Both the position numbers and the translations under genes were made by a program. From Escherichia coli (lineage in GTDB: Bacteria > Pseudomonadota > Gammaproteobacteria > Enterobacterales > Enterobacteriaceae), in the NCBI RefSeq assembly GCF_013315695.1, contig NZ_CP054353.1: a DNA stretch of 64,000 nt; one strand, written 5' to 3'. Positions within the stretch are counted from its first letter, which is position 1, and each line of letters opens with the position of its first letter. Below, in pieces: positions 7,905-22,480 of this stretch. The notes under the pieces are model-generated. The model was given only the letters and a program-made list of their open reading frames with translations, was not told where the DNA came from and ran no database searches.

Positions 7905-9077
7905 ATGGCTCAGGATTACCACCATGGGGTGCGCGTTGTTGAAGTCAACGAAGGCACCCGATCCATTACCACGGTGAGCACCGCCATCGTGGGTATGGTC
8001 TGCACGGGCGACGATGCCGATGCAAAAATGTTTCCTCTTAATAAACCCGTGCTGATCACTGATGTGCTGACTGCCAGCGGTAAAGCGGGTGAGTCCGGCA
8101 CGCTGGCCCGTTCGCTGGACGCCATCGCTGACCAGGCAAAACCCGTGACCGTTGTTGTGCGTGTGCCGCAGGGTGAAACGGAAGAAGAAACCACAACCAA
8201 TATCATCGGCGCAGTGACCGCCGAGGGTAAAAAAACAGGCATGAAAGCCCTGCTATCTGCCCAGTCACAGCTCGGCGTTAAACCGCGCATTCTCGGCGTG
8301 CCAGGTCACGATAACAAAGCCGTTGCTACTGAGTTGCTGAGTGTGGCGCAAAGCCTGCGTGGGTTTGCCTACCTGTCAGCATATGGCTGCAAGACGGTAC
8401 AGGAGGCGATCACTTACCGTGAAAACTTCAGCCAGCGCGAAGGGATGCTGATCTGGCCTGACTTTACTGGCTGGGACACGGTGCTGAACGCCGAAGCAAT
8501 GGCATATGCCACCGCCCGTGCGCTTGGTCTGCGTGCCAAAATTGATGAGCAGACCGGGTGGCACAAAAGCCTGTCCAACGTGGGCGTGAACGGTGTCACC
8601 GGAATTTCTGCAGATGTGTTCTGGGATCTGCAGGACCCGGCAACCGATGCAGGTCTGCTGAACCAGAACGACGTCACCACGCTTGTGCGTAAAGACGGTT
8701 TCCGCTTCTGGGGTTCCCGCTGCCTGAGTGATAACCCGCTCTTTGCCTTCGAAAACTACACCCGCACGGCGCAGGTGCTGATGGACACGATGGCAGAAGC
8801 ACACATGTGGGCGGTGGATAAACCGCTTAACCCGTCGCTGGCCCGCGACATTATCGAAGGTATCCGCGCCAAAATGCGCAACCTGGTCAGTCAGGGCTAT
8901 CTCATTGGTGGTGATTGCTGGCTGGACGAGTCGGTGAACGACAAAGACACGCTTAAAGCCGGAAAACTCACCATCGACTACGACTACACGCCAGTGCCGC
9001 CACTTGAAAATCTGATGCTGCGCCAGCGCATCACCGATCAGTACCTGGTGAATTTCGCCAGCCAGGTCAGCGCGTAA
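7905..9077 (+). CDS. FI: Contractile tail sheath protein FI
   Basis: 390 aa; AGGAGG RBS; size and position match P2 FI. Confidence 0.85.
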
Positions 9078-9086
9078 GGGGACAAC

Positions 9087-9602
9087 ATGGCTTTACCACG
9101 TAAATTAAAACATCTGAACTTGTTTAACGACGGGAACAACTGGCAGGGGATCGTTGAGTCGCTGACGCTGCCGAAATTCACCCGCAAATATGAGAAGTAT
9201 CGCGGCGGCGGTATGCCGGGGGCGGTGGATGTGGATCTGGGACTGGATGACAGTGCACTGGATACAGAATTTTCCATTGGTGGTACTGAACTGCTGCTGT
9301 TTAAGCAGATGGGCAAATCCACGGTGGATGGCATCCAGCTGCGCTTTACCGGCTCTATCCAGCGTGACGATACCGGGGAAGTGCAGGCCGTGGAGCTTGT
9401 CGTGCGTGGACGTCACAAAGAAGTGGATTCCGGCGAGTGGAAGACGGGCGAAAGCAACACCACCAAAGTGACCAGTACCAACAGCTACGCGAAGCTGACC
9501 ATCAATGGTGAGGTGCTCTATGAAGTGGACCTTATCAACATGGTGGAAATTGTGGACGGTGTGGACCTGATGGAAGCGCACCGCAACGCCCTCGGCCTCT
9601 GA
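9087..9602 (+). CDS. FII: Tail tube protein FII
   Basis: 171 aa immediately after sheath gene. Confidence 0.85.
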   Translation: MALPRKLKHLNLFNDGNNWQGIVESLTLPKFTRKYEKYRGGGMPGAVDVDLGLDDSALDTEFSIGGTELLLFKQMGKSTVDGIQLRFTGSIQRDDTGEVQAVELVVRGRHKEVDSGEWKTGESNTTKVTSTNSYAKLTINGEVLYEVDLINMVEIVDGVDLMEAHRNALGL

Positions 9603-9656: not shown

Positions 9657-9959
9657 ATGAGCGATAAACAGACTGAAAAGACCATTCAACTGGATACCCC
9701 CATCATGCGCGGTAAAACAGAAATTACCGAAATTGTGTTGCGTAAACCGCAGTCTGGTGCGCTGCGCGGCACACGCCTGCAGGCCATTATGGATATGGAT
9801 GTGAACGCGATGATGACCGTGATCCCCCGCATCTCCAGTCCGGCACTGACTGCACAGGAAATCGCAGAGATGGACCCGGCAGATCTCACAGCCATGTCGG
9901 TTGAGGTTGTCACTTTTTTGTTGAAGAAGTCGGTGCTTGCCGGTTTACCGACAGCCTGA
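9657..9959 (+). CDS. E: Tail assembly chaperone E
   Basis: 100 aa upstream of tape measure; contains slippery TTTTTTG at 9914-9920. Confidence 0.7.
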   Translation: MSDKQTEKTIQLDTPIMRGKTEITEIVLRKPQSGALRGTRLQAIMDMDVNAMMTVIPRISSPALTAQEIAEMDPADLTAMSVEVVTFLLKKSVLAGLPTA

Positions 9960-10093
9960 CGGTTGACGATCTGGTGGCAGATATCGCCACCATTTTTCAC
10001 TGGCCGCCATCCGTTACTGACGTTATGCCGCTGACCGAAGTGCTGGAATGGCGGTATAAAGCGATTCAGAGAAGCAGGGCCAACGATGAGTGA
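9657..10093 (+). CDS. E+E' fusion chaperone made by programmed -1 frameshift
   Basis: -1 frame after TTTTTTG stays open to TGA at 10091-10093, overlapping T start; conserved feature of tail chaperone genes. Confidence 0.5.
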
Positions 10094-13000
10094 TAACAAC
10101 CTGCGCCTGCAGGTCATTCTTAATGCGGTTGACAAACTCACCCGCCCATTCCGTGCTGCACAGGCCAGTTCGAAAGAGCTGGCTGGCGCAATCAGAAACT
10201 CCCGTGACGCATTAAAGCAACTCAATCAGGCGGGTAACAGCCTGGAAAAATTTCGCAAGCTGCAGGCTGATAACAAGAAGTTAGGTGACAGGCTGAACTA
10301 TGCCAGACAGAAGGCTAATTTGCTTAGCTCTGAGCTGGAGGCGATGGAACAACCATCACAACGGCACCTTGTGGCTTTAGGTCGGCAAACGCTGGCAGTC
10401 CAACGCCTGGAAGAACAACAAAAATATTTGCAGAAGCAAACGGCGCTTGTGCGTGCAGAACTGTACCGGGCGGGAATTTCTGCGAAAGATGATGCGGGAG
10501 CAACTGCCCGTTTAGCCCGTGAAACATCACGTTATAACCAGGAATTGTCGAAACAGGAGGCGCGGCTGAAGCGACTGGGTGAAGCTCAGCGCAGGATGAA
10601 TGCGGCGCGTGCCAGTTATGCCCGTTCGCTGGAGGTGCGTGATCGTATTGCAGGAGCCGGAGCCACCACCACGGCTGCAGGGCTGGCAATGGGAACACCA
10701 GTGATGGCGGCAGTAAAAAGCTATACCAGCATGGAAGATGCCATGAAAGGTGTGGCAAAGCAGGTCAATGGTCTGCGTGACGATAATGGCAACCGCACTG
10801 CACGTTTTTATGAAATGCAGGATGCCATCAAGGCTGCCAGCGAACAGTTGCCGATGGAAAACGGTGCGGTGGACTTCGCTGCACTGGTTGAAGGTGGTGC
10901 GCGCATGAACGTCGCAAACCCTGACGACAGCTGGGAAGACCAGAAACGTGACCTGCTGGCCTTCGCCAGTACGGCAGCAAAGGCGGCAACAGCCTTTGAG
11001 CTGCCAGCGGATGAACTGTCAGAAAGTCTGGGGAAAATCGCCCAGCTCTACAAAATACCTACCCGCAATATTGAACAGCTCGGCGATGCGCTGAACTATC
11101 TGGATGATAACGCCATGTCGAAAGGGGCGGACATCATTGATGTCATGCAACGTCTGGGCGGTGTGGCTGATCGTCTGGATTATCGTAAAGCGGCGGCGCT
11201 GGGTTCCACCTTTCTGACACTGGGCGCTGCGCCAGAGGTTGCAGCCAGTGCAGCAAACGCGATGGTGCGTGAATTGTCCATTGCCACCATGCAAAGCAAG
11301 AGTTTCTTTGAAGGGATGAATCTGCTGAAACTCAATCCTGAAGTGATTGAAAAGCAGATGACGAAGGATGCGATGGGAACTATCCAGCGTGTGCTGGAGA
11401 AGGTGAACGCACTGCCGCAGGACAAGCGTCTGTCTGCCATGACCATGTTGTTTGGTAAAGAGTTTGGTGATGACGCGGCGAAACTGGCAAACAACCTTCC
11501 GGAACTGCAGCGCCAGCTAAAACTGACTGCGGGCAATGATGCGCTCGGTTCCATGCAGAAAGAATCCGACATCAACAAAGACTCACTTTCTGCGCAGTGG
11601 TTGCTGGTCAAAACCGGAGCGCAGAACACCTTCAGCAGCCTGGGCGAAACGCTGCGCCAGCCGCTGATGGATATTCTGTACACGGTAAAAAGCATCACGG
11701 GGGCGTTGCGCCGCTGGGTGGAAGCTAACCCGGAACTGACAGGCACACTGATGAAAGTAGCGGCTGTTGTGGCTGCGGTTACCGTAGGCCTCGGCACCTT
11801 AGCGGTGGCGCTGGCTGCAGTGCTGGGGCCGCTGGCAGTCATCCGTTTGGGATTCTCTGTGCTGGGTATCAAAACGTTACCTTCCGTTACGGCAGCAGTA
11901 ACACGAACCAGCAGCGCGTTGTCCTGGCTGGCTGGCGCTCCACTGGCACTGCTGCGACGCGGGCTTGCTTCATCGGGCAACGCAGCGGGTTTACTTACTG
12001 CGCCGTTGTCGTCTTTGCGCCGCATGGCATCACTGACGGGGAATGTCCTGAAAACTGTAGCAGGTGTGCCGGTTGCACTGTTGCGGTCTGGATTATCCGG
12101 TTTACGTGCTGTTGCTGTGATGTTTATGAATCCACTGGCAGCACTACGCGGTGGACTGGCTGCCGCAGGCGCGGTGCTGCGAGTACTGGCATCCGGTCCG
12201 CTGGCGATGCTGCGCGTTGCCCTGTATGCCGTATCTGGTCTGTTAGGTGCTCTGCTCAGTCCGATAGGTCTTGTGGTTACTGCACTGGCGGGCGTGGCGC
12301 TGGTTGTCTGGAAATACTGGCAACCCATCACCGCATTTCTCGCTGGTGTGGTGGAAGGATTCAACGCGGCGGCAGGTCCCATCAGTGCAGCATTCGAACC
12401 GCTTAAGCCTGTGTTTCAGTGGATTGGCGATAAAGTGCAGGCGTTGTGGGGCTGGTTTACTGATCTGCTGACGCCCGTTAAGTCGACCTCTGCCGAACTG
12501 CAGAGTGCAGCGGCAATGGGGCGGCGATTCGGAGAGGCACTGGCGGAAGGGCTGAATATGGTCATGCATCCGCTGGACTCCCTGAAATCCGGCGTTTCCT
12601 GGTTGCTGGAGAAACTTGGCATTGTCAGTAAAGAGGCCGCAAAGGCAAAACTGCCGGAAAGCATGACGCGTCAGCAACCTGCGACGGTGAATGCAGACGG
12701 TAAAGTGATGATGCCATCGGGTGGTTTTCCGTCATGGGGATATGGCTTTGCGGGGATGTATGACAGCGGCGGGTATATCCCGCGCGGGCAGTTTGGCATC
12801 GTCGGTGAAAACGGGCCGGAAATTGTTAACGGCCCGGCAAATGTGACCAGCCGGAGAAATACAGCTGCACTGGCTGCCGTTGTTGCCGGAATGATGGGCG
12901 TTGCTGCCGCGCCAGCAGAGCTTCCACCGTTGCACCCTTTGGCACTTCCCGCGAAAGGTGGAGAAGCAATTGTGAGTCGCGCAGCCACTGTGCCGCTCGT

Positions 13001-13163
13001 TCAACGGATTGAGGCACCGACGCAGATCATCATTCAGACGCAGCCAGGACAAAGTGCGCAGGATATTGCGCGGGAGGTGGCACGCCAGCTTGATGAACGT
13101 GAACGCAGGCTGAAGGCAAAAGCCAGGAGTAACTACAGCGATCAGGGGGGATACGACGCATGA
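10086..13163 (+). CDS. T: Tail tape measure protein T
   Basis: 1025 aa; coiled-coil N-terminus, repeated hydrophobic PLAxLRxGL motifs; position after E/E'. Confidence 0.85.
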   Translation: MSDNNLRLQVILNAVDKLTRPFRAAQASSKELAGAIRNSRDALKQLNQAGNSLEKFRKLQADNKKLGDRLNYARQKANLLSSELEAMEQPSQRHLVALGRQTLAVQRLEEQQKYLQKQTALVRAELYRAGISAKDDAGATARLARETSRYNQELSKQEARLKRLGEAQRRMNAARASYARSLEVRDRIAGAGATTTAAGLAMGTPVMAAVKSYTSMEDAMKGVAKQVNGLRDDNGNRTARFYEMQDAIKAASEQLPMENGAVDFAALVEGGARMNVANPDDSWEDQKRDLLAFASTAAKAATAFELPADELSESLGKIAQLYKIPTRNIEQLGDALNYLDDNAMSKGADIIDVMQRLGGVADRLDYRKAAALGSTFLTLGAAPEVAASAANAMVRELSIATMQSKSFFEGMNLLKLNPEVIEKQMTKDAMGTIQRVLEKVNALPQDKRLSAMTMLFGKEFGDDAAKLANNLPELQRQLKLTAGNDALGSMQKESDINKDSLSAQWLLVKTGAQNTFSSLGETLRQPLMDILYTVKSITGALRRWVEANPELTGTLMKVAAVVAAVTVGLGTLAVALAAVLGPLAVIRLGFSVLGIKTLPSVTAAVTRTSSALSWLAGAPLALLRRGLASSGNAAGLLTAPLSSLRRMASLTGNVLKTVAGVPVALLRSGLSGLRAVAVMFMNPLAALRGGLAAAGAVLRVLASGPLAMLRVALYAVSGLLGALLSPIGLVVTALAGVALVVWKYWQPITAFLAGVVEGFNAAAGPISAAFEPLKPVFQWIGDKVQALWGWFTDLLTPVKSTSAELQSAAAMGRRFGEALAEGLNMVMHPLDSLKSGVSWLLEKLGIVSKEAAKAKLPESMTRQQPATVNADGKVMMPSGGFPSWGYGFAGMYDSGGYIPRGQFGIVGENGPEIVNGPANVTSRRNTAALAAVVAGMMGVAAAPAELPPLHPLALPAKGGEAIVSRAATVPLVQRIEAPTQIIIQTQPGQSAQDIAREVARQLDERERRLKAKARSNYSDQGGYDA

Positions 13164-13645
13164 TGATGGTGCTGGGATTGTACGTGTTTATGCTGCGCAC
13201 CGTTCCGTATCAGGAACTGCAGTATCAACGCAGCTGGCGACATGCGGCAAACAGTCGGGTAAACCGACGTCCGTCCACGCAGTTTCTGGGACCGGAAAAC
13301 GACATGCTGACGCTTTCCGGTGTTCTTATGCCGGAGATAACAGGCGGCAGGCTGTCGTTGCTGGCACTGGAGCAGATGGCAGAACAGGGGAAAGCATGGC
13401 CCCTGATTGAAGGCAGCGGCACGATTTACGGCATGTATGTGATTGAGGGACTGAATCAGACTAAAACGGAGTTTTTCCGCGACGGTATGCCGCGCCGGAT
13501 TGAGTTCACCCTGTCGCTCAAACGAGTGGATGAATCCCTGTCCGATATGTTCGGTGATCTCAGTGCGCAACTGAATAATCTGCAGGACACGGCAACGTCT
13601 GCCTTAAGCGATATCAGTAAAACGGTGGGAGGGCTGCTGTCGTGA
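13160..13645 (+). CDS. U: Tail protein U
   Basis: 161 aa; position and size match P2 gpU. Confidence 0.75.
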   Translation: MMMVLGLYVFMLRTVPYQELQYQRSWRHAANSRVNRRPSTQFLGPENDMLTLSGVLMPEITGGRLSLLALEQMAEQGKAWPLIEGSGTIYGMYVIEGLNQTKTEFFRDGMPRRIEFTLSLKRVDESLSDMFGDLSAQLNNLQDTATSALSDISKTVGGLLS

Positions 13646-14742
13646 ATTTCAGCGCTGAACTGCTTAACACAGGCAACAAAACTCCCGCATTCAGCATCAG
13701 TATTGAGGGCAGGGATATCACCACTGTGCTGGATAACCGCCTGATGAGTTTGACGCTGACGGATAACCGGGGCTTTGAAGCGGACCAGCTTGATCTGGAG
13801 CTGGATGACGCTGACGGAAAAATCGTGCTGCCGCGCCGTGGTGCGGTCATTACGCTGGCGCTGGGCTGGAAGGGGCAGCCGCTTTTCCCTAAAGGGGCAT
13901 TCACAGTGGACGAGATTGAACACACTGGCGCACCGGACCGCCTGACTATCCGGGCGCGAAGTGCTGATTTTCGGGAAACGCTGAATACCCGCCGTGAAAA
14001 ATCGTGGCATAAGACCACCGTCGGGGAAGTGGTGAAGGAAATAGCCGCGCGGCACAAGCTGAAGATGGCACTGGGTAAAGACCTGTCGGATAAGCCCGTG
14101 GAGCATATAGACCAGACTAATGAGAGTGACGGCAGTTTTCTGATGCGGCTGGCGCGACAGTACGGTGCCATCGCGTCGGTGAAAAATGGCAATCTGTTAT
14201 TCATCCGGCAGGGGCAGTGCAAAAGCGCCACTGGTAAACCTCTGCCAGTGATCACTATCACACGCAAGGACGGTGACAGTCACCGATTTATCCTGGCAGA
14301 TCGCGGAGCCTACACGGGCGTAATTGCCAGCTGGTTGCATACCCGCGAACCTGCGAAGAAAGAAAGCACCACGGTGAAGCGTAAGCGCAGAACTAAGAAG
14401 CAGAAGAAAGAGCCAGAAGCGAAGCAGGGCGATTACCTGGTGGGTACGGATGAAAACGTGCTGGTACTTAATCGCACTTATGCCAACCGGAGCAACGCCG
14501 AACGAGCGGCGAAAATGCAGTGGGAACGCCTGCAACGCGGCGTTGCGTCATTTTCTCTACAACTGGCAGAAGGGCGGGCAGATCTCTACACGGAAATGCC
14601 TGTGAAGGTCAGTGGTTTTAAACAGCCGATAGATGATGCGGAATGGACCATTACGACTCTGACACATACCGTCAGCCCGGATAACGGTTTTACAACCAGT
14701 ATTGAACTTGAAGTGAAAATTAATGATCTTGAAATGGAATAA
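13642..14742 (+). CDS. D: Tail/baseplate hub protein D
   Basis: 366 aa; GTG start overlapping U stop; position matches P2 gpD. Confidence 0.75.
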   Translation: MNFSAELLNTGNKTPAFSISIEGRDITTVLDNRLMSLTLTDNRGFEADQLDLELDDADGKIVLPRRGAVITLALGWKGQPLFPKGAFTVDEIEHTGAPDRLTIRARSADFRETLNTRREKSWHKTTVGEVVKEIAARHKLKMALGKDLSDKPVEHIDQTNESDGSFLMRLARQYGAIASVKNGNLLFIRQGQCKSATGKPLPVITITRKDGDSHRFILADRGAYTGVIASWLHTREPAKKESTTVKRKRRTKKQKKEPEAKQGDYLVGTDENVLVLNRTYANRSNAERAAKMQWERLQRGVASFSLQLAEGRADLYTEMPVKVSGFKQPIDDAEWTITTLTHTVSPDNGFTTSIELEVKINDLEME

Positions 14743-14810
14743 ATGGTTCTCAATATTGATATTTTGTGTATCATTGCATTGATTATGATAGCAAAGGTAG
14801 GGATCTGGAT

Positions 14811-15029
14811 ATGATGAATTGTCCAAAGTGTGGTCATGCGGCGCACACAAGGAGCAGTTTTCAAGTAACGGAAAGCACCAAAGAACGTTACTGCCAGTGC
14901 CAAAATATTAACTGCGGGAGCACTTTTGTTACCCATGAAACAGTGGTCCGGTTTATTGTGACACCTGCAGTGATTGCCACAGCCCCTCCACATCCATTGC
15001 CAGATGGTCAGGGCCATATGAATTTTTAA
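14811..15029 (+). CDS. ogr: Ogr zinc-finger late-gene transcriptional activator
   Basis: MMNCPKCGHAAH...CQCQNINCGSTF with four-Cys zinc finger; about 72 aa from ATG at 14811. Confidence 0.85.
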   Translation: MMNCPKCGHAAHTRSSFQVTESTKERYCQCQNINCGSTFVTHETVVRFIVTPAVIATAPPHPLPDGQGHMNF

Positions 15030-15036
15030 GAAAGAG

Positions 15037-15064
15037 AACCTGCTACGGCAGGTTTTATTTTTCT
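15037..15064 (+). terminator. Rho-independent terminator after ogr
   Basis: aacctgctacggcaggtt hairpin followed by T-rich run. Confidence 0.6.
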
Positions 15065-15269
15065 GTAAGCCTATCCATTTAAAGTATAAATGAATATTTA
15101 CATTGATGATTATCATTAGAGTTGCGTTAAAGACTACACCTGCCATTTGTACAATGTTTTAAAGTAATGGCTGCAATTAAATGCAGCCATTATTTATAAT
15201 GATTAATATATATAAAATATCAGACACTGAATAATAACGTACTTTATGTTCAAGGGTCGATATAATCAC

Positions 15270-16346
15270 TTAATAGAATGTTTCTACTAAAGCGTTTACA
15301 TGTTCTCTAGCCTCGCGATAACGCTCTCTTACAACGTTGATAATTTCACCGTTTGGCATTTCATAATGAGTTTGAGCAGGAAGTTTGAAAAGAGGAATTC
15401 CCAAACTTGCAGAAACTTTCCCTGAAGTATGAAAATCTTTAACTTCAGAAAGATAGGCCGCCTCCCATTCATTTAAGTTATTGATTTCACGATATCGCTC
15501 CGTGAATAGTTCTGGGAAGTTCTGATATTGTGTAAAAGCAAAAGCACAAAGGGATTCTTTGATTGAATCATAAGCTCTGGCAACACCAAGATTAGACGTA
15601 AAGTTATTGAAAACAAAGCGATCTAACTTAGGTAATGTAAGATTATTATTCACAACTTGGCTATGAAAAGTGACAAACTTTTCTGCATAGGTTTGTGCAG
15701 CAGAAGAGGGATAATGGCCATAAAGAAGCATCATTATTCCTTTCATCCCTTCTAATGAACTGTAATCAGCCATCATAGGGACGACCAGTCTATCTGAAGA
15801 TAGTAGAGCCATTTGGGTGTAGATAGAAAAACTTGGATTACAGTCAATAAAGACAACCATATCATCGTAATCATCAATATCATGTTCTAGAGTACATAGT
15901 CGACGAAATGCTGTCATATACTCTTTCCATGCGAACCTGTTAGCTGGACTGATAACTGCATAGTTCAGTGCAAGAGTAAGGGACTCGAGGAATGAATCAC
16001 CGGCGATGAGAAACAAATTATCGCTGATTTCATCATTATATTGGTTTACTGCTACTTTGAAAGAACGTCGAATACTGGTGAAATTTGAATGGCCATCTAA
16101 AAGCCAGTCCAGAAACCCTACGACATTTTTGCGTGTTCGTGAAGATTGTAGCTCTTGATTAGTATTGTACCCACGATCACCTCCTCCAAGCAGGTATTGA
16201 GAAATGTTTGCTTGCGGACACAAATCTATTACTAGTACCTGTGTGCTGGGATTTTCTTCTGCATACTGTGCAGCAATGTTGAAACCAAGTGTTGTTTTTC
16301 CAACACCGCCTTTGTTGTTATACATTGCATAAATCTTAACTGCCAT
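15270..16346 (-). CDS. Orphan ParA/MinD-like P-loop ATPase with uncharacterised C-terminal extension; prophage cargo gene of unknown function
   Basis: 358 aa; deviant Walker A KGGVGKTT at residues 12-19, A' motif VLVIDLCPQAN, Walker B-like MVVFIDCNPS; AT-rich; opposite strand to phage late genes; no ParB-like neighbour. Confidence 0.75.
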   Translation of the reverse strand: MAVKIYAMYNNKGGVGKTTLGFNIAAQYAEENPSTQVLVIDLCPQANISQYLLGGGDRGYNTNQELQSSRTRKNVVGFLDWLLDGHSNFTSIRRSFKVAVNQYNDEISDNLFLIAGDSFLESLTLALNYAVISPANRFAWKEYMTAFRRLCTLEHDIDDYDDMVVFIDCNPSFSIYTQMALLSSDRLVVPMMADYSSLEGMKGIMMLLYGHYPSSAAQTYAEKFVTFHSQVVNNNLTLPKLDRFVFNNFTSNLGVARAYDSIKESLCAFAFTQYQNFPELFTERYREINNLNEWEAAYLSEVKDFHTSGKVSASLGIPLFKLPAQTHYEMPNGEIINVVRERYREAREHVNALVETFY

Positions 16347-16641
16347 GTGTATTTCACCCGAGGTTGAATAAAAGCCTACTACATCGCTATTTTACCATTC
16401 AATTTTATCATTAGCAGATTCCAATGAAGAAGATACTTCTGGTTTATCTAATGAAAATTGTGAAGTAAAAGTAGGATACTTCATTCTTCTGCAGTGAGGG
16501 GGGCGTGGATAACATTATAATTTCTTGTTGTATAGCCTTTTCGGGAAAGAGCAGACAAGATTTACATAAAACTCTGTCGCCATTTTGCCGCCACTTCCAA
16601 AGAAAAAGGGGCTACGCTTTCACGTAACCCCTTGATTTATT

Positions 16642-17004
16642 TGGTGGAGCTGGCGGGAGTTGAACCCGCGTCCGAAATTCCTACATCCTCGGTACTACAT
16701 GCTTAGTCAGTCTTTACATTCGCTTGCCAGCTGCGGACGGACACGCCACTAACAAACTAGCCTGATTAAGTTTTAACGCTTCAACCCCAGGCAGGGCTTC
16801 CACGCGATCTCTTTTGGGTTTGACCTCTCTTGATCCCCGTCCTAAGAGCGGAGGCTAGGGAGAGAGGGCTCTAAGCAGGTTATTAAGCTGCTAAAGCGTA
16901 GTTTTCGTCGTTTGCGACTATTTTTTGCGGCTTTTTACGAGGCCAACCGCCCCTCGGCATGCACCTTGGGTTTCGCAAATCCCGTCGAATCCAGAATCAG
17001 CCCC
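16642..17004 (-). ncRNA. ssrA: tmRNA (SsrA)
   Basis: Reverse complement reads GGGGCTGATTCTGGATTCGACGGG...GGACGCGGGTTCAACTCCCGCCAGCTCCACCA; tag-coding region present. Confidence 0.95.
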
Positions 17005-17218
17005 AATGTGTAACGGTAAGTATACCAGATTCATGAGTGCCATGACCAGCCTCAATGGCGTTATCGTTAAAGATTTAGCACCCATGTAGCCTGATTTTTA
17101 TTCGATTAAGCAATGGGATGGCAACATTTGTGTCGGATGTGATAGCCAATAAGATGTGCATTCGCGCCGCCGGAGAGGGAGGCGCGGTGAGGAACTGGTC
17201 AATAATTGCAGTGCAGGT

Positions 17219-17701
17219 TTAACGGTGGGCGTTTTTCATGATACGCGCTTTATCCACCTGCCATTCGCGTTCTTTGATATCTGAACGTTTATCATGCTGT
17301 TTCTTACCTTTGGCGACGCCGATTTTCACTTTGCACCAGGCATTTTTCCAGTACAGGGAGAGCGCCACTACGGTATAGCCTTCTCGATTGACGCGACCGT
17401 ACAATGAGTCCAGTTCGCGCTGGTTGAGAAGTAACTTGCGGGTACGGGTAGGATCGCACACCACATGCGTGGAGGCCACGGCCATTGGCGTGATGTTAGC
17501 GCCAAACAGAAATGCCTCTCCGTCACGCAGAAGGACGTAGCTGTCGCTGATATTGGCTTTTCCTGCGCGCAGGGATTTAACTTCCCAGCCTTGCAGGGCA
17601 AGTCCCGCTTCGAACTCTTCTTCGATAAAGTATTCGTGACGGGCGCGCTTGTTAAGCGCGATGGTCGCTGAACCAGGTTTATGTGCTTTTTTCTTCGTCA
17701 T
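17219..17701 (-). CDS. smpB: SsrA-binding protein SmpB
   Basis: 160 aa, recognised as E. coli SmpB; adjacent to ssrA. Confidence 0.95.
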
Positions 17702-17832
17702 AAGCGTCGTGAATCATCGGTAATCTGAAATCGAAAACACCCCATATCAATCCTGCGGGGGACAAGGCTCTATCTTAGCATGAACCCGATGTTACCCAGC
17801 GCCGGGATAGCGTTTTTTTTACAGCAGGATAA

Positions 17833-18309
17833 ATGATATTATTTGTTGGATTTTTGTTGATGGAAATTGTTATGCCTCAGATTAGCCGGACCGCACTGGT
17901 ACCCTACAGCGCGGAGCAAATGTATCAGTTAGTGAATGACGTTCAGTCTTATCCTCAGTTTTTGCCGGGTTGTACCGGAAGTCGGATTCTGGAGTCCACT
18001 CCTGGGCAGATGACTGCGGCGGTAGATGTCTCTAAGGCTGGGATCAGCAAAACGTTTACTACCCGCAACCAGTTGACCAGTAACCAAAGTATTCTTATGA
18101 ATCTGGTGGATGGGCCGTTCAAGAAATTGATCGGTGGATGGAAGTTTACGCCGCTGAGCCAGGAGGCGTGTCGTATCGAGTTTCATCTCGACTTTGAGTT
18201 TACCAATAAGTTGATTGAACTCGCCTTTGGTCGCGTGTTTAAAGAGCTGGCGGCTAATATGGTCCAGGCTTTTACGGTTCGTGCGAAAGAGGTTTACAGT
18301 GCCAGGTAA
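17833..18309 (+). CDS. ratA: Ribosome association toxin RatA (YfjG)
   Basis: 158 aa; conserved position divergent from smpB. Confidence 0.85.
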
Positions 18310-18589
18310 AATTGCCGTTGAGGTGGCTTATGCGCTACCTGAGAAGCAGTACCTGCAGCGCGTGACGCTGCAGGAGGGTGCGACGGTTGAAGAAGCTATT
18401 CGTGCCAGTGGCTTGCTGGAATTGCGTACCGATATCGATTTAACTAAAAACAAAGTCGGCATTTACAGCCGTCCGGCCAAACTGAGCGATACCGTGCATG
18501 ATGGCGATCGGGTGGAGATTTATCGTCCTCTCATTGCCGATCCGAAAGAGCTGCGCAGGCAACGAGCAGAAAAATCAGCGAATAAATAA
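18299..18589 (+). CDS. ratB: RatB (YfjF)
   Basis: 96 aa from GTG at 18299 overlapping ratA stop (track ORF 18215 over-extends). Confidence 0.75.
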
Positions 18590-18595
18590 CAGACA

Positions 18596-18627
18596 GAAAA
18601 AAGGTGCTCATTGAGCACCTTTTTTAA
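18596..18627. terminator. Bidirectional rho-independent terminator between ratB and bamE
   Basis: aaaaaaggtgctcattgagcacctttttt: hairpin flanked by A and T runs. Confidence 0.65.
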
Positions 18628-18650
18628 CCTCTTTGAGAGCAACTTTATTA

Positions 18651-18992
18651 TTAGTTACCACTCAGCGCAGGTTTGTTATCAATGTTGGTCAACACACCGC
18701 TACTGTTAAAGGTCAGCGTCAGCGTTTGCTGCGTTACACCTTCATGACCAGGTTGCTGGCGGAAGACATAGAACCAGGTATTTGTACCAAATGGATCGGA
18801 CATCAGCGGTGTACCCAATGCGTACGCAACTTGTTGTTGCGTCATGCCAACACGTATTTTGGATACGTCGTTAGCGGTCAGATAATTCCCCTGGTTGATG
18901 TCAGGACGGTAAACCACTCGCTCCAGAGTGGAACAGCCTGCGGTCAACATCAATAGTACTGCTGCTGCAGCAGTCAGCGTTTTACAGCGCAT
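18651..18992 (-). CDS. bamE: Outer-membrane assembly lipoprotein BamE (SmpA)
   Basis: 113 aa with lipobox LTAGC. Confidence 0.9.
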
Positions 18993-19140: not shown

Positions 19141-20802
19141 TTACGCCGCAAGCAGTTCTTTCGCATTCGCCAGTGTGTTACGTGTGACTTCACTGCCACC
19201 AAGCAGGCGTGCCAGCTCTTGTAACCGCGCTTTTTTATCCAGGGATTGCATGTGCGTTTCTGTCATCGCACCATCGGTTTCTTTGCTGACAAAATAGTGT
19301 TGATGACCACATCCCGCGACTTGTGGCAGGTGGGTAACACACATCACCTGAGTTGATTCGCCAAGTTGACGCAGCAGTTTGCCGACAACTGCCGCTGTTG
19401 GGCCGCTAATCCCTACATCCACTTCATCAAAAATCAGTGCCGGGGTTTCCATTTTACGCGCCGTGATGACCTGAATTGCCAATGCGATGCGGGACAACTC
19501 ACCACCGGATGCGACTTTGGCAATAGGCTGCATTGGCTGACCTGGGTTGGTGGTTACCCGAAACTCAATACGATCAGCGCCGTCAGCGCCCAGGTGATGC
19601 TCGTCAAATTTAACATCGATCGTAAACTGCCCATGCGGCATAGAGAGTGCATGCATACTGTCGGTGATCAGCTGTGCAAGTTCTTCTGCATAGTGCTGGC
19701 GTTGCTGGTGTAACGCGCGCGCCGTTTCCAGTGCCTGCTGATGATGTTTCGTTACCGCCAGCGCGAGCGTTTCTTGTGAGTCGGCCTGATCGTCCAGTTG
19801 CTGCTGTTCTTCCAGTAGCGACTGGTAATACTGTGGCAATGCCTCAGGGCTGACGTGATGTTTACGTGCCAGCGAAATCTGTCTTGAGATGCGCTGTTCA
19901 AGTTCAAACAGTCGGTTGGGATCGAGATCCAGACGATCGCAGTAGTGGCGCAGTTCATCGCTGGCTTCAGCAATCTGGATGGTAGCTTCTTCCAGCATAT
20001 CAAGTACGCCGGACAGTTTGCTGTCCATGCCAATCAATTCGCTCACCAGTTGTTTAGCCGTGTAAAGCTGACTTTGCAGGTTTGCGTCTTCACCGTCGGC
20101 CATTACTGCCAATGCATTCTGGCTGGTAGTCAGCAATTGACCGCTGTTCGCCAGACGTTTGTACTCTTCGTCGATTTGCTCAAACTCTCCGGGCTGCGGA
20201 TTAAATTCGTTAAGTTCTTTTAATTGGTATTGCAGCAGTTCTGCACGGGCGGCGCGTTCCTGACTTAACTGTTGATGATGCGCGAGGTCACGGCAGCTTT
20301 GATGCCACAACTGATAACGTGCGGTCATTTCCTGGAGTAGAGAGGTTTCATTGGCATAGCCATCAAGCAGGAATTTTTGGTGCTCGGGTTTGGTGAGTAA
20401 CTGATGAGCGTGCTGACCATGGATCTGAATCAGCAACTGACCCAGTTCGCGCAGTTGTGAAAGAGGAACCGCTGTACCGTTGATAAAACCACGGGAGCGA
20501 CCATCGCTGCTGATTACGCGACGAAGCAAACATTCATGCCCGTCTTCAAGCTGGTTTTCTTCCAGCCAGCGCAGGGCCGCTGGCGTATCTTTCAGAGAAA
20601 AACGGGCGCACAGGTCAGCGCGAGCAGCGCCGGTACGCACCATGTCGGCTTCAGCGCGACCACCGAGACAAAGACCGAGGGCATCTATTGCAATAGATTT
20701 ACCCGCGCCGGTCTCGCCAGTTATTACGGTCATGCCGCTATGAAAATCAATCTCAAGCTCACGAACGATAGCAAAGTTGCTGATGGTCAGTTGTGCCAAC
20801 AT
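19141..20802 (-). CDS. recN: DNA repair protein RecN
   Basis: 553 aa SMC-like; Walker A GETGAGKS. Confidence 0.95.
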
Positions 20803-20830
20803 AGTTGTTTTCCTGTATGAAAAACCATTA

Positions 20831-20868
20831 CTGTTATTGTGTACAGTATAAACTGGTTTTATATACAG
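20831..20868 (-). promoter_or_regulatory. Overlapping LexA (SOS) boxes in recN promoter
   Basis: CTGT-N8-ACAG motifs: ctgttattgtgtacag, and ctgtatataaaaccag on minus strand. Confidence 0.7.
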
Positions 20869-20887
20869 TAAAGAGGCTGGCGTAAAA

Positions 20888-22480
<1,593 letters not shown>

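Follow-up and report, generated by a model that had tools for sequence, protein, structure and literature searches.

A P2-like tape measure protein with a copy-number-variable repeat array in its hydrophobic section

A long tail gene in an Escherichia coli prophage encodes a protein whose central region repeats a short hydrophobic motif. This locus raises the questions of which protein it is, how the repeats arose and what they contribute to the phage particle. The gene was analyzed within a stretch of 64,000 nucleotides (the window), in which only the rightmost ~15 kb of the prophage are contained.

Gene T and the tail gene cluster

[quoted passage not shown] The original prediction had named T a tape measure protein of the P2 T type, and profile matches and synteny agreed with it. 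PF10145 (PhageMin_Tail) matched aa 246–457 (E = 2e-18; 67.5 bits versus a cut-off of 33.2), TIGR01760 (tape_meas_TP901) matched aa 200–567 (E = 3e-93; 312 bits versus a cut-off of 28.8), and PHROG 28 matched T with E = 1e-195. T shared 97.7% nucleotide identity with gp35 of phage 4LV2017, which is annotated as 'P2 gpT-like'. The local gene order FI-FII-E/E'-T-U-D-ogr agrees with that of P2, and the arrangement of E and E' is the same as in P2 and 4LV2017. As expected for a tape measure gene, T lies within the tail cluster directly downstream of the chaperone pair formed by −1 frameshifting. Gene T itself is known and ordinary, being annotated in about a fifth of the complete E. coli genomes.

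With its 1025 aa, T is longer than P2 T, as had been claimed, since the latter comprises 815 aa (19850–22297 in NC_001895). P2 gpT has the orthologous position and role, its start also overlaps E' by 8 nt, and it shares 30% identity with T over the whole length, with coiled coil, core, hydrophobic section and WKYWxP region in the same order. The 210 additional residues of T are distributed over the repeat block (94), the C-terminal part (79), the core (19) and the hydrophobic stretches (18). No repeat unit was detected in P2 T by the repeat HMM, and P2 T lacks the C-terminal GQFGIVGENGPEIV motif. The confident parts of the AF2 model of T were mostly helical; thus, T combines length, helices and hydrophobic segments, as is characteristic of tape measure proteins. 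Its N-terminal region (aa 1–198) is mosaic between otherwise near-identical relatives.

Table 1. Features of the tail gene cluster and regions of the T protein (aa, residues of T unless a protein length is given).
Feature	Position in window	Strand	Residues or size	Description and basis
Tail sheath FI	7905–9077	+	390 aa	PHROG 23, 4LV2017 annotation
Tail tube FII	9087–9602	+	171 aa	PHROG 55, 4LV2017 annotation
Tail assembly chaperone E	9657–9959	+	100 aa	PHROG 103
Slippery site for E/E' frameshift	9914–9920	+		TTTTTTG; sequence
E' (−1 frame partner of E)	ends 10093 (E/E' pair, 9657..10093)	+		8-nt overlap with T start
Tape measure gene T	10086..13163	+	1025 aa	ATG start; ORF and profile matches
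N-terminal long-helix (coiled-coil-like) region	10086..10679	+	aa 1–198	AF2 helices 4–86, 92–128, 136–188, pLDDT 70–90
Conserved TMP core (TP901-family domain)	10683..11786	+	aa 200–567	TIGR01760, PF10145; AF2 helical bundle, pLDDT 80–90
Hydrophobic stretch 1	11736..11873	+	aa 551–596 (~46 residues)	Ends in U0; Kyte-Doolittle
U0			aa 582	PLAVIRLGF
86-aa (2 × 43) block	11910..12167	+	aa ~609–694	Alignment gap versus RE-2010 T
Five tandem repeat units U1–U5	11940..12260	+		Motif positions, shuffle and lag statistics, unit HMM, consensus
U1			aa 619–639	PLALLRRGL
U2			aa 640–661	PLSSLRRMA
U3			aa 662–682	PVALLRSGL
U4			aa 683–704	PLAALRGGL
U5			aa 705–725	PLAMLRVAL
Hydrophobic stretch 2	12183..12320	+	aa 700–745	Spans U5 and degenerate U6; Kyte-Doolittle
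U6			aa 726	Looser, degenerate copy PIGLVVTAL
Helical region WKYWQPI...WLLEKLG	12312..12662	+	aa 743–859	Widely conserved; library alignments
C-terminal motif GGYIPRGQFGIVGENGPEIV...	12738..12863	+	aa 885–926	tblastn; common to many siphophage TMPs
Tail gene U	13160–13645	+		PHROG 76, 4LV2017 annotation
Tail gene D	13642–14742	+		PHROG 52, 4LV2017 annotation

A tandem array of 21/22-residue units

At least five motif copies had been noted in the central region of T. All of the motifs quoted were found, and motif counts, autocorrelation and a unit profile HMM all revealed repeats. The HMM yielded five significant copies (aa 617–724) with 21–30 bits, and the best of 200 shuffles reached 5.8 bits. 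The strict motif PLAxLR was observed six times in T (aa 582, 619, 640, 662, 683 and 705) versus 0.011 expected, with a shuffle maximum of one; a loose motif was observed seven times versus 0.11 expected, with a shuffle maximum of three (5000 composition-preserving shuffles of aa 541–800). The units begin with proline and follow the consensus PLALLRxGLAxxGxVLxxLxx.

From U0 to U6, the motif starts are spaced by 37, 21, 22, 21, 22 and 21 aa. The highest BLOSUM autocorrelation was observed at a lag of 43 aa (z of 6.8), followed by lags of 64, 86, 21 and 22 aa. The 21/22-aa spacing represents three diverged 43-aa double units. These share 34–43% nucleotide identity, i.e., the copies are old at the DNA level. 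Tandem Repeats Finder reported no repeats in gene T because the copies are too diverged in DNA; therefore, the repeats are real at the protein level only. The only repeat in T at the DNA level was a 29-nt family with 129-nt spacing. The original prediction did not include the strict periodicity of 21/22 (43) aa, nor that the repeats lie in the hydrophobic section and differ in copy number between relatives.

Tandem repeats of 11 aa and of 11/18 aa (11-11-18 aa) with aromatic residues are known from TMPs (Belcaid et al. 2011, PMC3271669; Siponen/Mahony; TP901-1 TMP, PMC5099701). Like the units of the array described here, they vary in number by duplication and loss, and their deletion shortens the tail. 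In contrast, the period of the present array is 21/22 (43) aa, its marker is a proline followed by LxxLR rather than Trp/Phe, and it lies inside the hydrophobic section, whereas the aromatic units form a separate repeat domain. A period of 11 or 18 aa marked by Trp or Phe, as in the aromatic repeats, was not found by autocorrelation of T, lag 11 being outside the top 12 lags. Hints of an 11-aa sub-period were limited to an allele carrying an 11-aa duplication and to LLR/VLR pairs inside the units.

Origin and length variation of the array

The same gene, with 1025 aa and the same neighbours, is present as gp35 in 4LV2017 (a Klebsiella phage, Elveevirus) and in P2-like prophages of E. coli. These TMPs differ from T of the window by point changes only, and the array is unannotated there. 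The repeat region was found in 1043 of 5426 complete E. coli genomes. T of the RE-2010/Fels-2 type (Salmonella, Felsduovirus) has 935 aa and is collinear with T over the full length at 75% identity, with a different allele of the N-terminal coiled-coil segment. It lacks the four-unit block of 86 aa and has kept one unit; the alignment contained a single gap of 86 columns, located exactly in the array. In distant homologs, taken as representatives of clusters at 50% identity, only U0, U5 and U6 were found, spaced by 37 aa (U0–U5) and 21 aa (U5–U6). P582 and P726 were nearly invariant across 69 homologs.

The comparison of RE-2010, P2 and the distant homologs indicates that ancestral T had two hydrophobic stretches of ~46 residues almost adjacent to each other, between which four extra units lie in T of the window. 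The alignments further indicate that a 43-residue double unit within the hydrophobic middle section was duplicated in two rounds, which produced the repeats.

Unit number has continued to change. In 120 close homologs, the flanks were fixed at 578 and 277 aa, while the array varied between 69 and 192 aa and the TMPs between 924 and 1047 aa. Eleven length classes were observed (924, 935, 950, 961, 975, 988, 997, 1003, 1025, 1036 and 1047 aa), and most of these alleles were near-identical outside the array. The 1047-aa allele carries a 66-nt tandem duplication (65/66 identical), and the 1003-aa allele carries a 66-nt deletion matching it. Apart from this, the tail modules around the two alleles are identical, with the same gene sizes, including FI and FII. 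The length junctions lie inside repeat units, mostly within the PLAxLR motif, and several distinct crossover points were found. Thus, as in the aromatic TMP repeats, units are duplicated and lost among relatives. Since the PLAxLR-coding box is common to the units, units are added to the array or lost from it through unequal recombination or slippage, which gives rise to the in-frame allele series in related prophages. A Chi site, sought in T as the cause of a recombination hot spot, was not present. The repeat type and the length series are new, a modest detail.

Possible roles in tail length and at the membrane

We read the array as a copy-number-variable, cationic and amphipathic linker between two hydrophobic stretches. 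The Kyte-Doolittle 19-residue mean peaked at 2.4 in both aa 551–596 and aa 700–745 and was at least 1.6 over ~46 residues in each, which is long enough for membrane-spanning helices. The array region is rich in leucine (18%), alanine (18%), valine (12%) and glycine (10%). Between aa 579 and 756 no acidic residue is present, and 13 of the 14 K/R residues in aa 579–760 are located upstream of aa 711. The four extra units (86 aa) are moderately hydrophobic and arginine-rich, and with Kyte-Doolittle means of 0.5–1.2, U1–U4 are too polar for classical membrane-spanning helices. AF2, run with an alignment of 69 sequences, predicted no secondary structure for aa 558–740 (pLDDT of ~30), so that helices or hairpins in the array lack support from the model.

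In our assessment, it is probable that the duplicated, copy-number-variable array of this P2-like tape measure protein counts in the ruler, and it may also act at the membrane. During assembly, the array would sit inside the tail tube like the rest of the TMP and add to the ruler. A ring of the tail tube measures roughly 4 nm, and each unit would add about 2–3 nm to the tail. In the TMP of TP901-1, deletions in the repeats and in the hydrophobic region both shorten the tail proportionally (PMC5099701). For P2-like Burkholderia phages, T proteins of 842, 920 and 1075 aa correspond to tails of 140, 150 and 160 nm (PMC3091744). The resulting slope of about 0.9–1.3 Å per residue is below strict P2 proportionality (about 1.66 Å per residue), whereas the original prediction was a tail that is longer in proportion to T. 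The array probably adds to tail length, with a tail estimated at about 155–170 nm compared to 135 nm for P2. In the literature, neither a micrograph of a phage with this T allele nor tail measurements for RE-2010, Fels-2, 4LV2017, the Kp48xx phages or 500465-1 were found.

The array may also take part in the formation of a membrane channel. After sheath contraction, the TMP would exit the tube, and its hydrophobic stretches would insert into the cell membrane and form or prime a channel for DNA; the cationic amphipathic units could then sit at the membrane interface or lengthen the channel. The T5 TMP (pb2) contains a hydrophobic stretch of 46 residues for which a pair of membrane helices and a role in channel formation have been proposed, and the membrane segment of the T4 TMP (gp29) touches lipid and extends the conduit of the tube. 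Similarly, the stretches of T comprise ~46 hydrophobic residues, enough for a helical hairpin. Unlike pb2 and gp29, T possesses two such stretches, parted by a repeated cationic linker.

The T alleles of the prophages constitute a natural series of putative rulers that differ slightly in length. With them, it can be tested whether the hydrophobic section counts in the ruler when the TMP is that of a contractile tail. They also bear on how sub-ring steps (about 22 residues, 2–3 nm) become whole rings, and on whether the gap between the two hydrophobic stretches affects DNA entry.

Alternatively, albeit less probably, the array serves as a largely neutral spacer that is prone to recombination and whose role is limited to a few nanometres of ruler, with repeated DNA driving length changes and TMPs tolerating in-frame changes. 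Conservation within T is lowest in the array (62–75% identity versus 88–92% in the core), and in one allele group (1053 aa) it is swapped for an unrelated hydrophilic insert; therefore, a loosely constrained spacer fits as well as a specific function. The eleven length classes point in the same direction, as do in-frame duplications of 45 aa and 114 aa elsewhere in T variants. However, across genera with ~80% overall identity, the motif keeps its P, L, R and G residues and the block its exact length of 108 aa, and ~180 aa completely devoid of acidic residues would be unexpected for a neutral segment.

The repeats could also be putative periodic docking sites for the tail chaperones E and E+E', one per unit, which would coat the hydrophobic T before the tube polymerises. 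E and its frameshift partner are intact directly upstream of T, including the slip site, and for other TMPs, periodic repeats as well as hydrophobic stretches have been suggested to bind chaperones (PMC5099701). This reading is unlikely, given that E stays at 100 aa in prophages that differ in unit number, and that RE-2010 T works with one unit and P2 T with none.

Two further readings assign a function to array length itself. We consider it quite doubtful that the array works as a tunable module instead of a passive spacer, in which case 21/22-residue cationic amphipathic helices between membrane hairpins would set tail length in sub-ring steps and may alter the reach or geometry of the TMP channel; if so, host envelopes that differ or exclusion proteins that target the TMP could exert selection. 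Slightly less credible still is diversifying selection on array length, either for tuning to the host envelope or for evading superinfection exclusion by proteins that bind to the membrane segment of the TMP. Length variation is confined mostly to the array, and T4 Imm was reported to block infection via TMP binding, but repeat-mediated recombination fully accounts for the variation.

That the motif recurs by chance in an Ala/Leu/Gly/Val-rich region, or that the region truly encodes the long antisense ORF (11180..12382, 400 aa), has a negligible probability despite the compositional bias, since no shuffle equalled the observed motif counts or HMM scores and the plus-strand frame of T is kept in thousands of TMP homologs; the antisense ORF was rejected as a by-product of the GC-rich coding region.

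Downstream of the array, most of 911 library matches aligned to aa 743–859, where W745, G754, P797, G812 and G816 are invariant. A PDB sequence search yielded only marginal matches (E = 0.03–0.1), namely the TMP chains 9j1k_J and 8kea_G, over the WKYWxPI region. The C-terminal motif (aa 885–926) shared 55–72% identity over ~40 aa with TMPs of Pseudomonas, Xanthomonas, Vibrio and Acinetobacter phages in tblastn, and it is duplicated in T variants of 1139 aa.

The tape measure gene and its setting

The original prediction of a 1025-aa T protein was verified: the ORF is real and exceeds P2 T, whose length is 815 aa (19850–22297 of NC_001895), as given in that prediction. The product matched PF10145 (67.5 bits; cut-off 33.2), TIGR01760 tape_meas_TP901 (312 bits; cut-off 28.8) and PHROG 28, 'tail length tape measure protein' (E = 1e-195). 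At the DNA level, T shares 97.7% identity with gp35, annotated as P2 gpT-like, from Klebsiella phage 4LV2017 (Peduoviridae, Elveevirus). The surroundings of the gene are those of P2, in the order FI, FII, E/E', T, U, D. The window gene encodes a tail tape measure protein (TMP) and is a known, routinely annotated and ordinary gene of this kind.

Features of the tail module, T and the prophage right end
Feature	Window position	T residues	Remarks
Sheath FI	7905–9077		neighbour as in P2
Tube FII	9087–9602		neighbour as in P2
Chaperone E	9657–9959		intact; P2-type -1 slippery site T TTT TTG at 9914–9920
E' frame	end 10093		intact; stop 10091–10093; 8-nt overlap with T start ATG (10086)
T	10086–13163 (+)	1–1025	ATG start, 1025 aa
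WKYWQPI...WLLEKLG region		743–859	region conserved most widely across the family, downstream of the array
C-terminal motif GGYIPRGQFGIVGENGPEIV	12738–12863	885–926	after the WKYWQPI...WLLEKLG region
U, D	3' of T		neighbours as in P2
ogr-like ORF	14766–15029		prophage right end

The prophage host is E. coli, and the window begins within the prophage, covering only its right ~15 kb. The right end is adjoined by a ParA-family gene, followed by ssrA (tmRNA), smpB, ratA and yfjF (window ~14766–18700); among 5426 complete E. coli genomes, just 2 have this exact junction. Prophages with 1003- and 1047-aa T alleles lie at another site, beside ybjL/ybjM/grxA/nfsA. DNA of the repeat region was present in 1043 of the 5426 genomes, where the annotation was in every case 'phage tail tape measure protein'.

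A periodic array in the hydrophobic section

All of the proline-led motifs quoted in the original prediction are present in T. Six matches to the strict pattern P[LV][AS].[LI]R lie at aa 582, 619, 640, 662, 683 and 705, and a looser pattern adds a copy at aa 726. From aa 619 on, the motif starts are spaced by 21, 22, 21, 22 and 21 aa, i.e., the array has a strict periodicity, and three double units of 43 aa may be distinguished in it (aa 616–658, 659–701 and 702–744). In 5000 composition-preserving shuffles of aa 541–800, the strict motif was expected 0.011 times (maximum 1) as compared to the six copies observed; the expectation for the loose motif was 0.11 (maximum 3). BLOSUM autocorrelation peaked at lag 43 (z 6.8), followed by lags 64, 86, 21 and 22. 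A profile HMM derived from the units detected five significant copies in window T (aa 617–724; 21–30 bits), one in T of Salmonella phage RE-2010 (15.6 bits; left out of training) and none in P2 T, while the best of 200 shuffles scored 5.8 bits. The recurrence of the motif is far beyond chance, and the repeat observation was confirmed. The double units have 10–17 of 43 residues and 34–43% of nucleotides in common. Tandem Repeats Finder reported nothing in T, and the sole repeat visible in the DNA is a 29-nt family at 129-nt (43-codon) spacing. The repeat copies are, judged by sequence, old.

An AF2 model of T from a 69-sequence alignment (mean pLDDT 60) showed confident long helices at aa 4–188 and a helical bundle at aa 200–550, but no structure for aa 558–740 (pLDDT ~30), the span holding every repeat. 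Two strongly hydrophobic stretches of ~46 residues (aa 551–596 and 700–745; Kyte-Doolittle 19-residue mean up to 2.4) flank a moderately hydrophobic block (0.3–1.4). Thirteen of the 14 Lys/Arg of aa 579–760 lie upstream of aa 711, and there are no acidic residues between aa 579 and 756. This cationic block comprises units U1–U4, each with Pro first, with Arg at position 6 and often at 7 as well, and rich in Gly/Ala/Ser; U5, together with a degenerate U6, makes up the second hydrophobic stretch. The units have the consensus PLALLRxGLAxxGxVLxxLxx.

Length variation and origin of the array

Across the 120 closest clusters of homologs, the N-terminal 578 and C-terminal 277 residues were of constant length. 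Length varied in the segment flanked by VLGPLAVIR and KYWQPI as anchors.

Array segment and T lengths in the closest homolog clusters
Array segment (aa)	T (aa)
69	924/925
84	935 (RE-2010)
95	950
106	961
120	975
133	988
142	997
148	1003
170	1025
181	1036
192	1047

The junctions of the length variants lie inside repeat units: PLAxLR holds most of them, and others coincide with LLR/VLR or further short similarities. Since the 1003-aa alleles have at least three distinct crossover points (PLAVLRGALY, PLAVLRVALY and PLAMLRVALY), they arose more than once. In the 1047-aa allele, U4 is tandemly duplicated (66 nt; 65/66 identical), and one 1003-aa allele carries a matching 66-nt deletion. Assembly artefacts are unlikely, since both alleles are located on large chromosomal contigs with tail modules of equal gene sizes (sheath 390, tube 171, E 100, E' 39, U 161 and D 366 aa). 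Common length classes include a 1025-aa cluster with 9661 members and a 1003-aa cluster with 1764; the 1047-aa protein was found on 24 contigs. The array is a duplicated, recombination-prone part of the TMP hydrophobic section and alters TMP length in steps of ~11–22 residues. In Citrobacter, Lelliottia, Enterobacter and Scandinavium (T ~80% identical), the exact length and motif residues of the block were kept, and it was still the least conserved region (62–75% identity as compared to 88–92% for the core).

Relative to RE-2010 T (75% identity), window T carries a single 86-aa (2 × 43) insertion exactly in the array and 4 further aa elsewhere. An exhaustive profile search for T homologs yielded 911 hits, and full-length representatives below 50% identity had only three copies, U0, U5 and U6, with a U0–U5 distance of 37 aa, equal to the U0–U1 distance in window T. 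Since only these copies occur in distant homologs, and P582 and P726 are nearly invariant (69-sequence alignment), the ancestor had two adjacent hydrophobic stretches with a Pro motif before each. Four further units were inserted between them in the clade of window T. The surplus over P2 T totals 210 residues: 94 in the repeat block, 79 in the C-terminal region, 19 in the core and 18 in the hydrophobic stretches.

Variable tandem TMP units are already known as 11-aa and 11/18-aa aromatic repeats (PMC3271669; PMC5099701). The window array shares their duplication-and-loss behaviour but not their defining periodicity: its units recur every 21/22 (43) aa and are marked by Pro instead of Trp/Phe. 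It also differs in its placement within the hydrophobic section. The array adds a new example to a phenomenon already known; no description of the array in a P2-type T was found in the searchable literature, which is weak evidence of novelty.

As part of the tape measure, the array would count as ruler. The P2 tail is 135 nm long, and scaling from it (815 aa) would predict a 170 nm tail. A length of about 157 nm is predicted from P2-like Burkholderia phages, in which T of 842, 920 and 1075 aa accompanies tails of 140, 150 and 160 nm (PMC3091744). In TP901-1, deletions in the repeat domain and in a hydrophobic region led to proportionally shorter tails (PMC5099701). The 86-aa block would account for about 8–13 nm and one unit for about 2–3 nm, which is below the roughly 4 nm of a single tube ring (the 160 nm T5 tail has 40 rings). 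Once the TMP is expelled, the hydrophobic stretches would insert into the membrane, as likewise proposed for T4 gp29 and for T5 pb2, whose 46 hydrophobic residues are proposed to form two helices and a channel; the cationic amphipathic units would sit at the lipid interface or lengthen the conduit. In rival readings, the array may serve in chaperone docking, may be a nearly neutral spacer, or its length may be under diversifying selection. As a natural series, the alleles could be used to test how the hydrophobic portion of the ruler is measured in a myophage.

Further variation in T and its homologs

In the frequent group of 1053-aa alleles (P0059, P0069, P0095, P0096 etc.), an unrelated 130-aa insert, hydrophilic and acid-rich (…GDALKKLFGLFSGNEAGETVNW…GGGDDDGGG…), replaces U1–U4 (window aa ~600–700) between unchanged flanks. 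The 1139-aa homologs (P0001, P0020–P0031), common in E. coli, carry a diverged 114-aa in-frame duplication of a C-terminal module, which aligns to window aa ~860–940 (window 12663–12905), and two copies of the motif GGYIPxGQFGIVGENxPExVNGPANVTSRRNTA. In P0037 (1070 aa), STSAELQ...WLLEKL is tandemly duplicated (45 aa). In P0039 (1020 aa), part of the array (…LLRVWIIRFTCGCCDVYESTGG…) is frameshifted, with the frame regained before the end of U5 and U6 and downstream sequence normal, and in the 1107-aa homologs (P0042/P0045–P0054) the T stop is read through into out-of-frame sequence; sequencing errors or prophage decay probably account for both.

The motif GGYIPRGQFGIVGENGPEIV is 55–72% identical to C-terminal parts of TMPs from unrelated siphophages (Pseudomonas, Xanthomonas, Vibrio, Acinetobacter and Stenotrophomonas) and absent from P2 T; it may be in contact with the hub or tip of the tail. 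Mosaicism is seen in the N-terminal coiled-coil region (window 10086–10679; T aa ~35–170): P0040 and P0106, elsewhere 96–100% and 75–96% identical to window T, respectively, are only 47–49% identical there, and RE-2010 T has a different allele. An antisense ORF of 400 aa (window 11180–12382, minus strand) overlaps the repeat region and is regarded as a by-product of the coding strand, which is rich in GC and in Ala/Leu/Gly.
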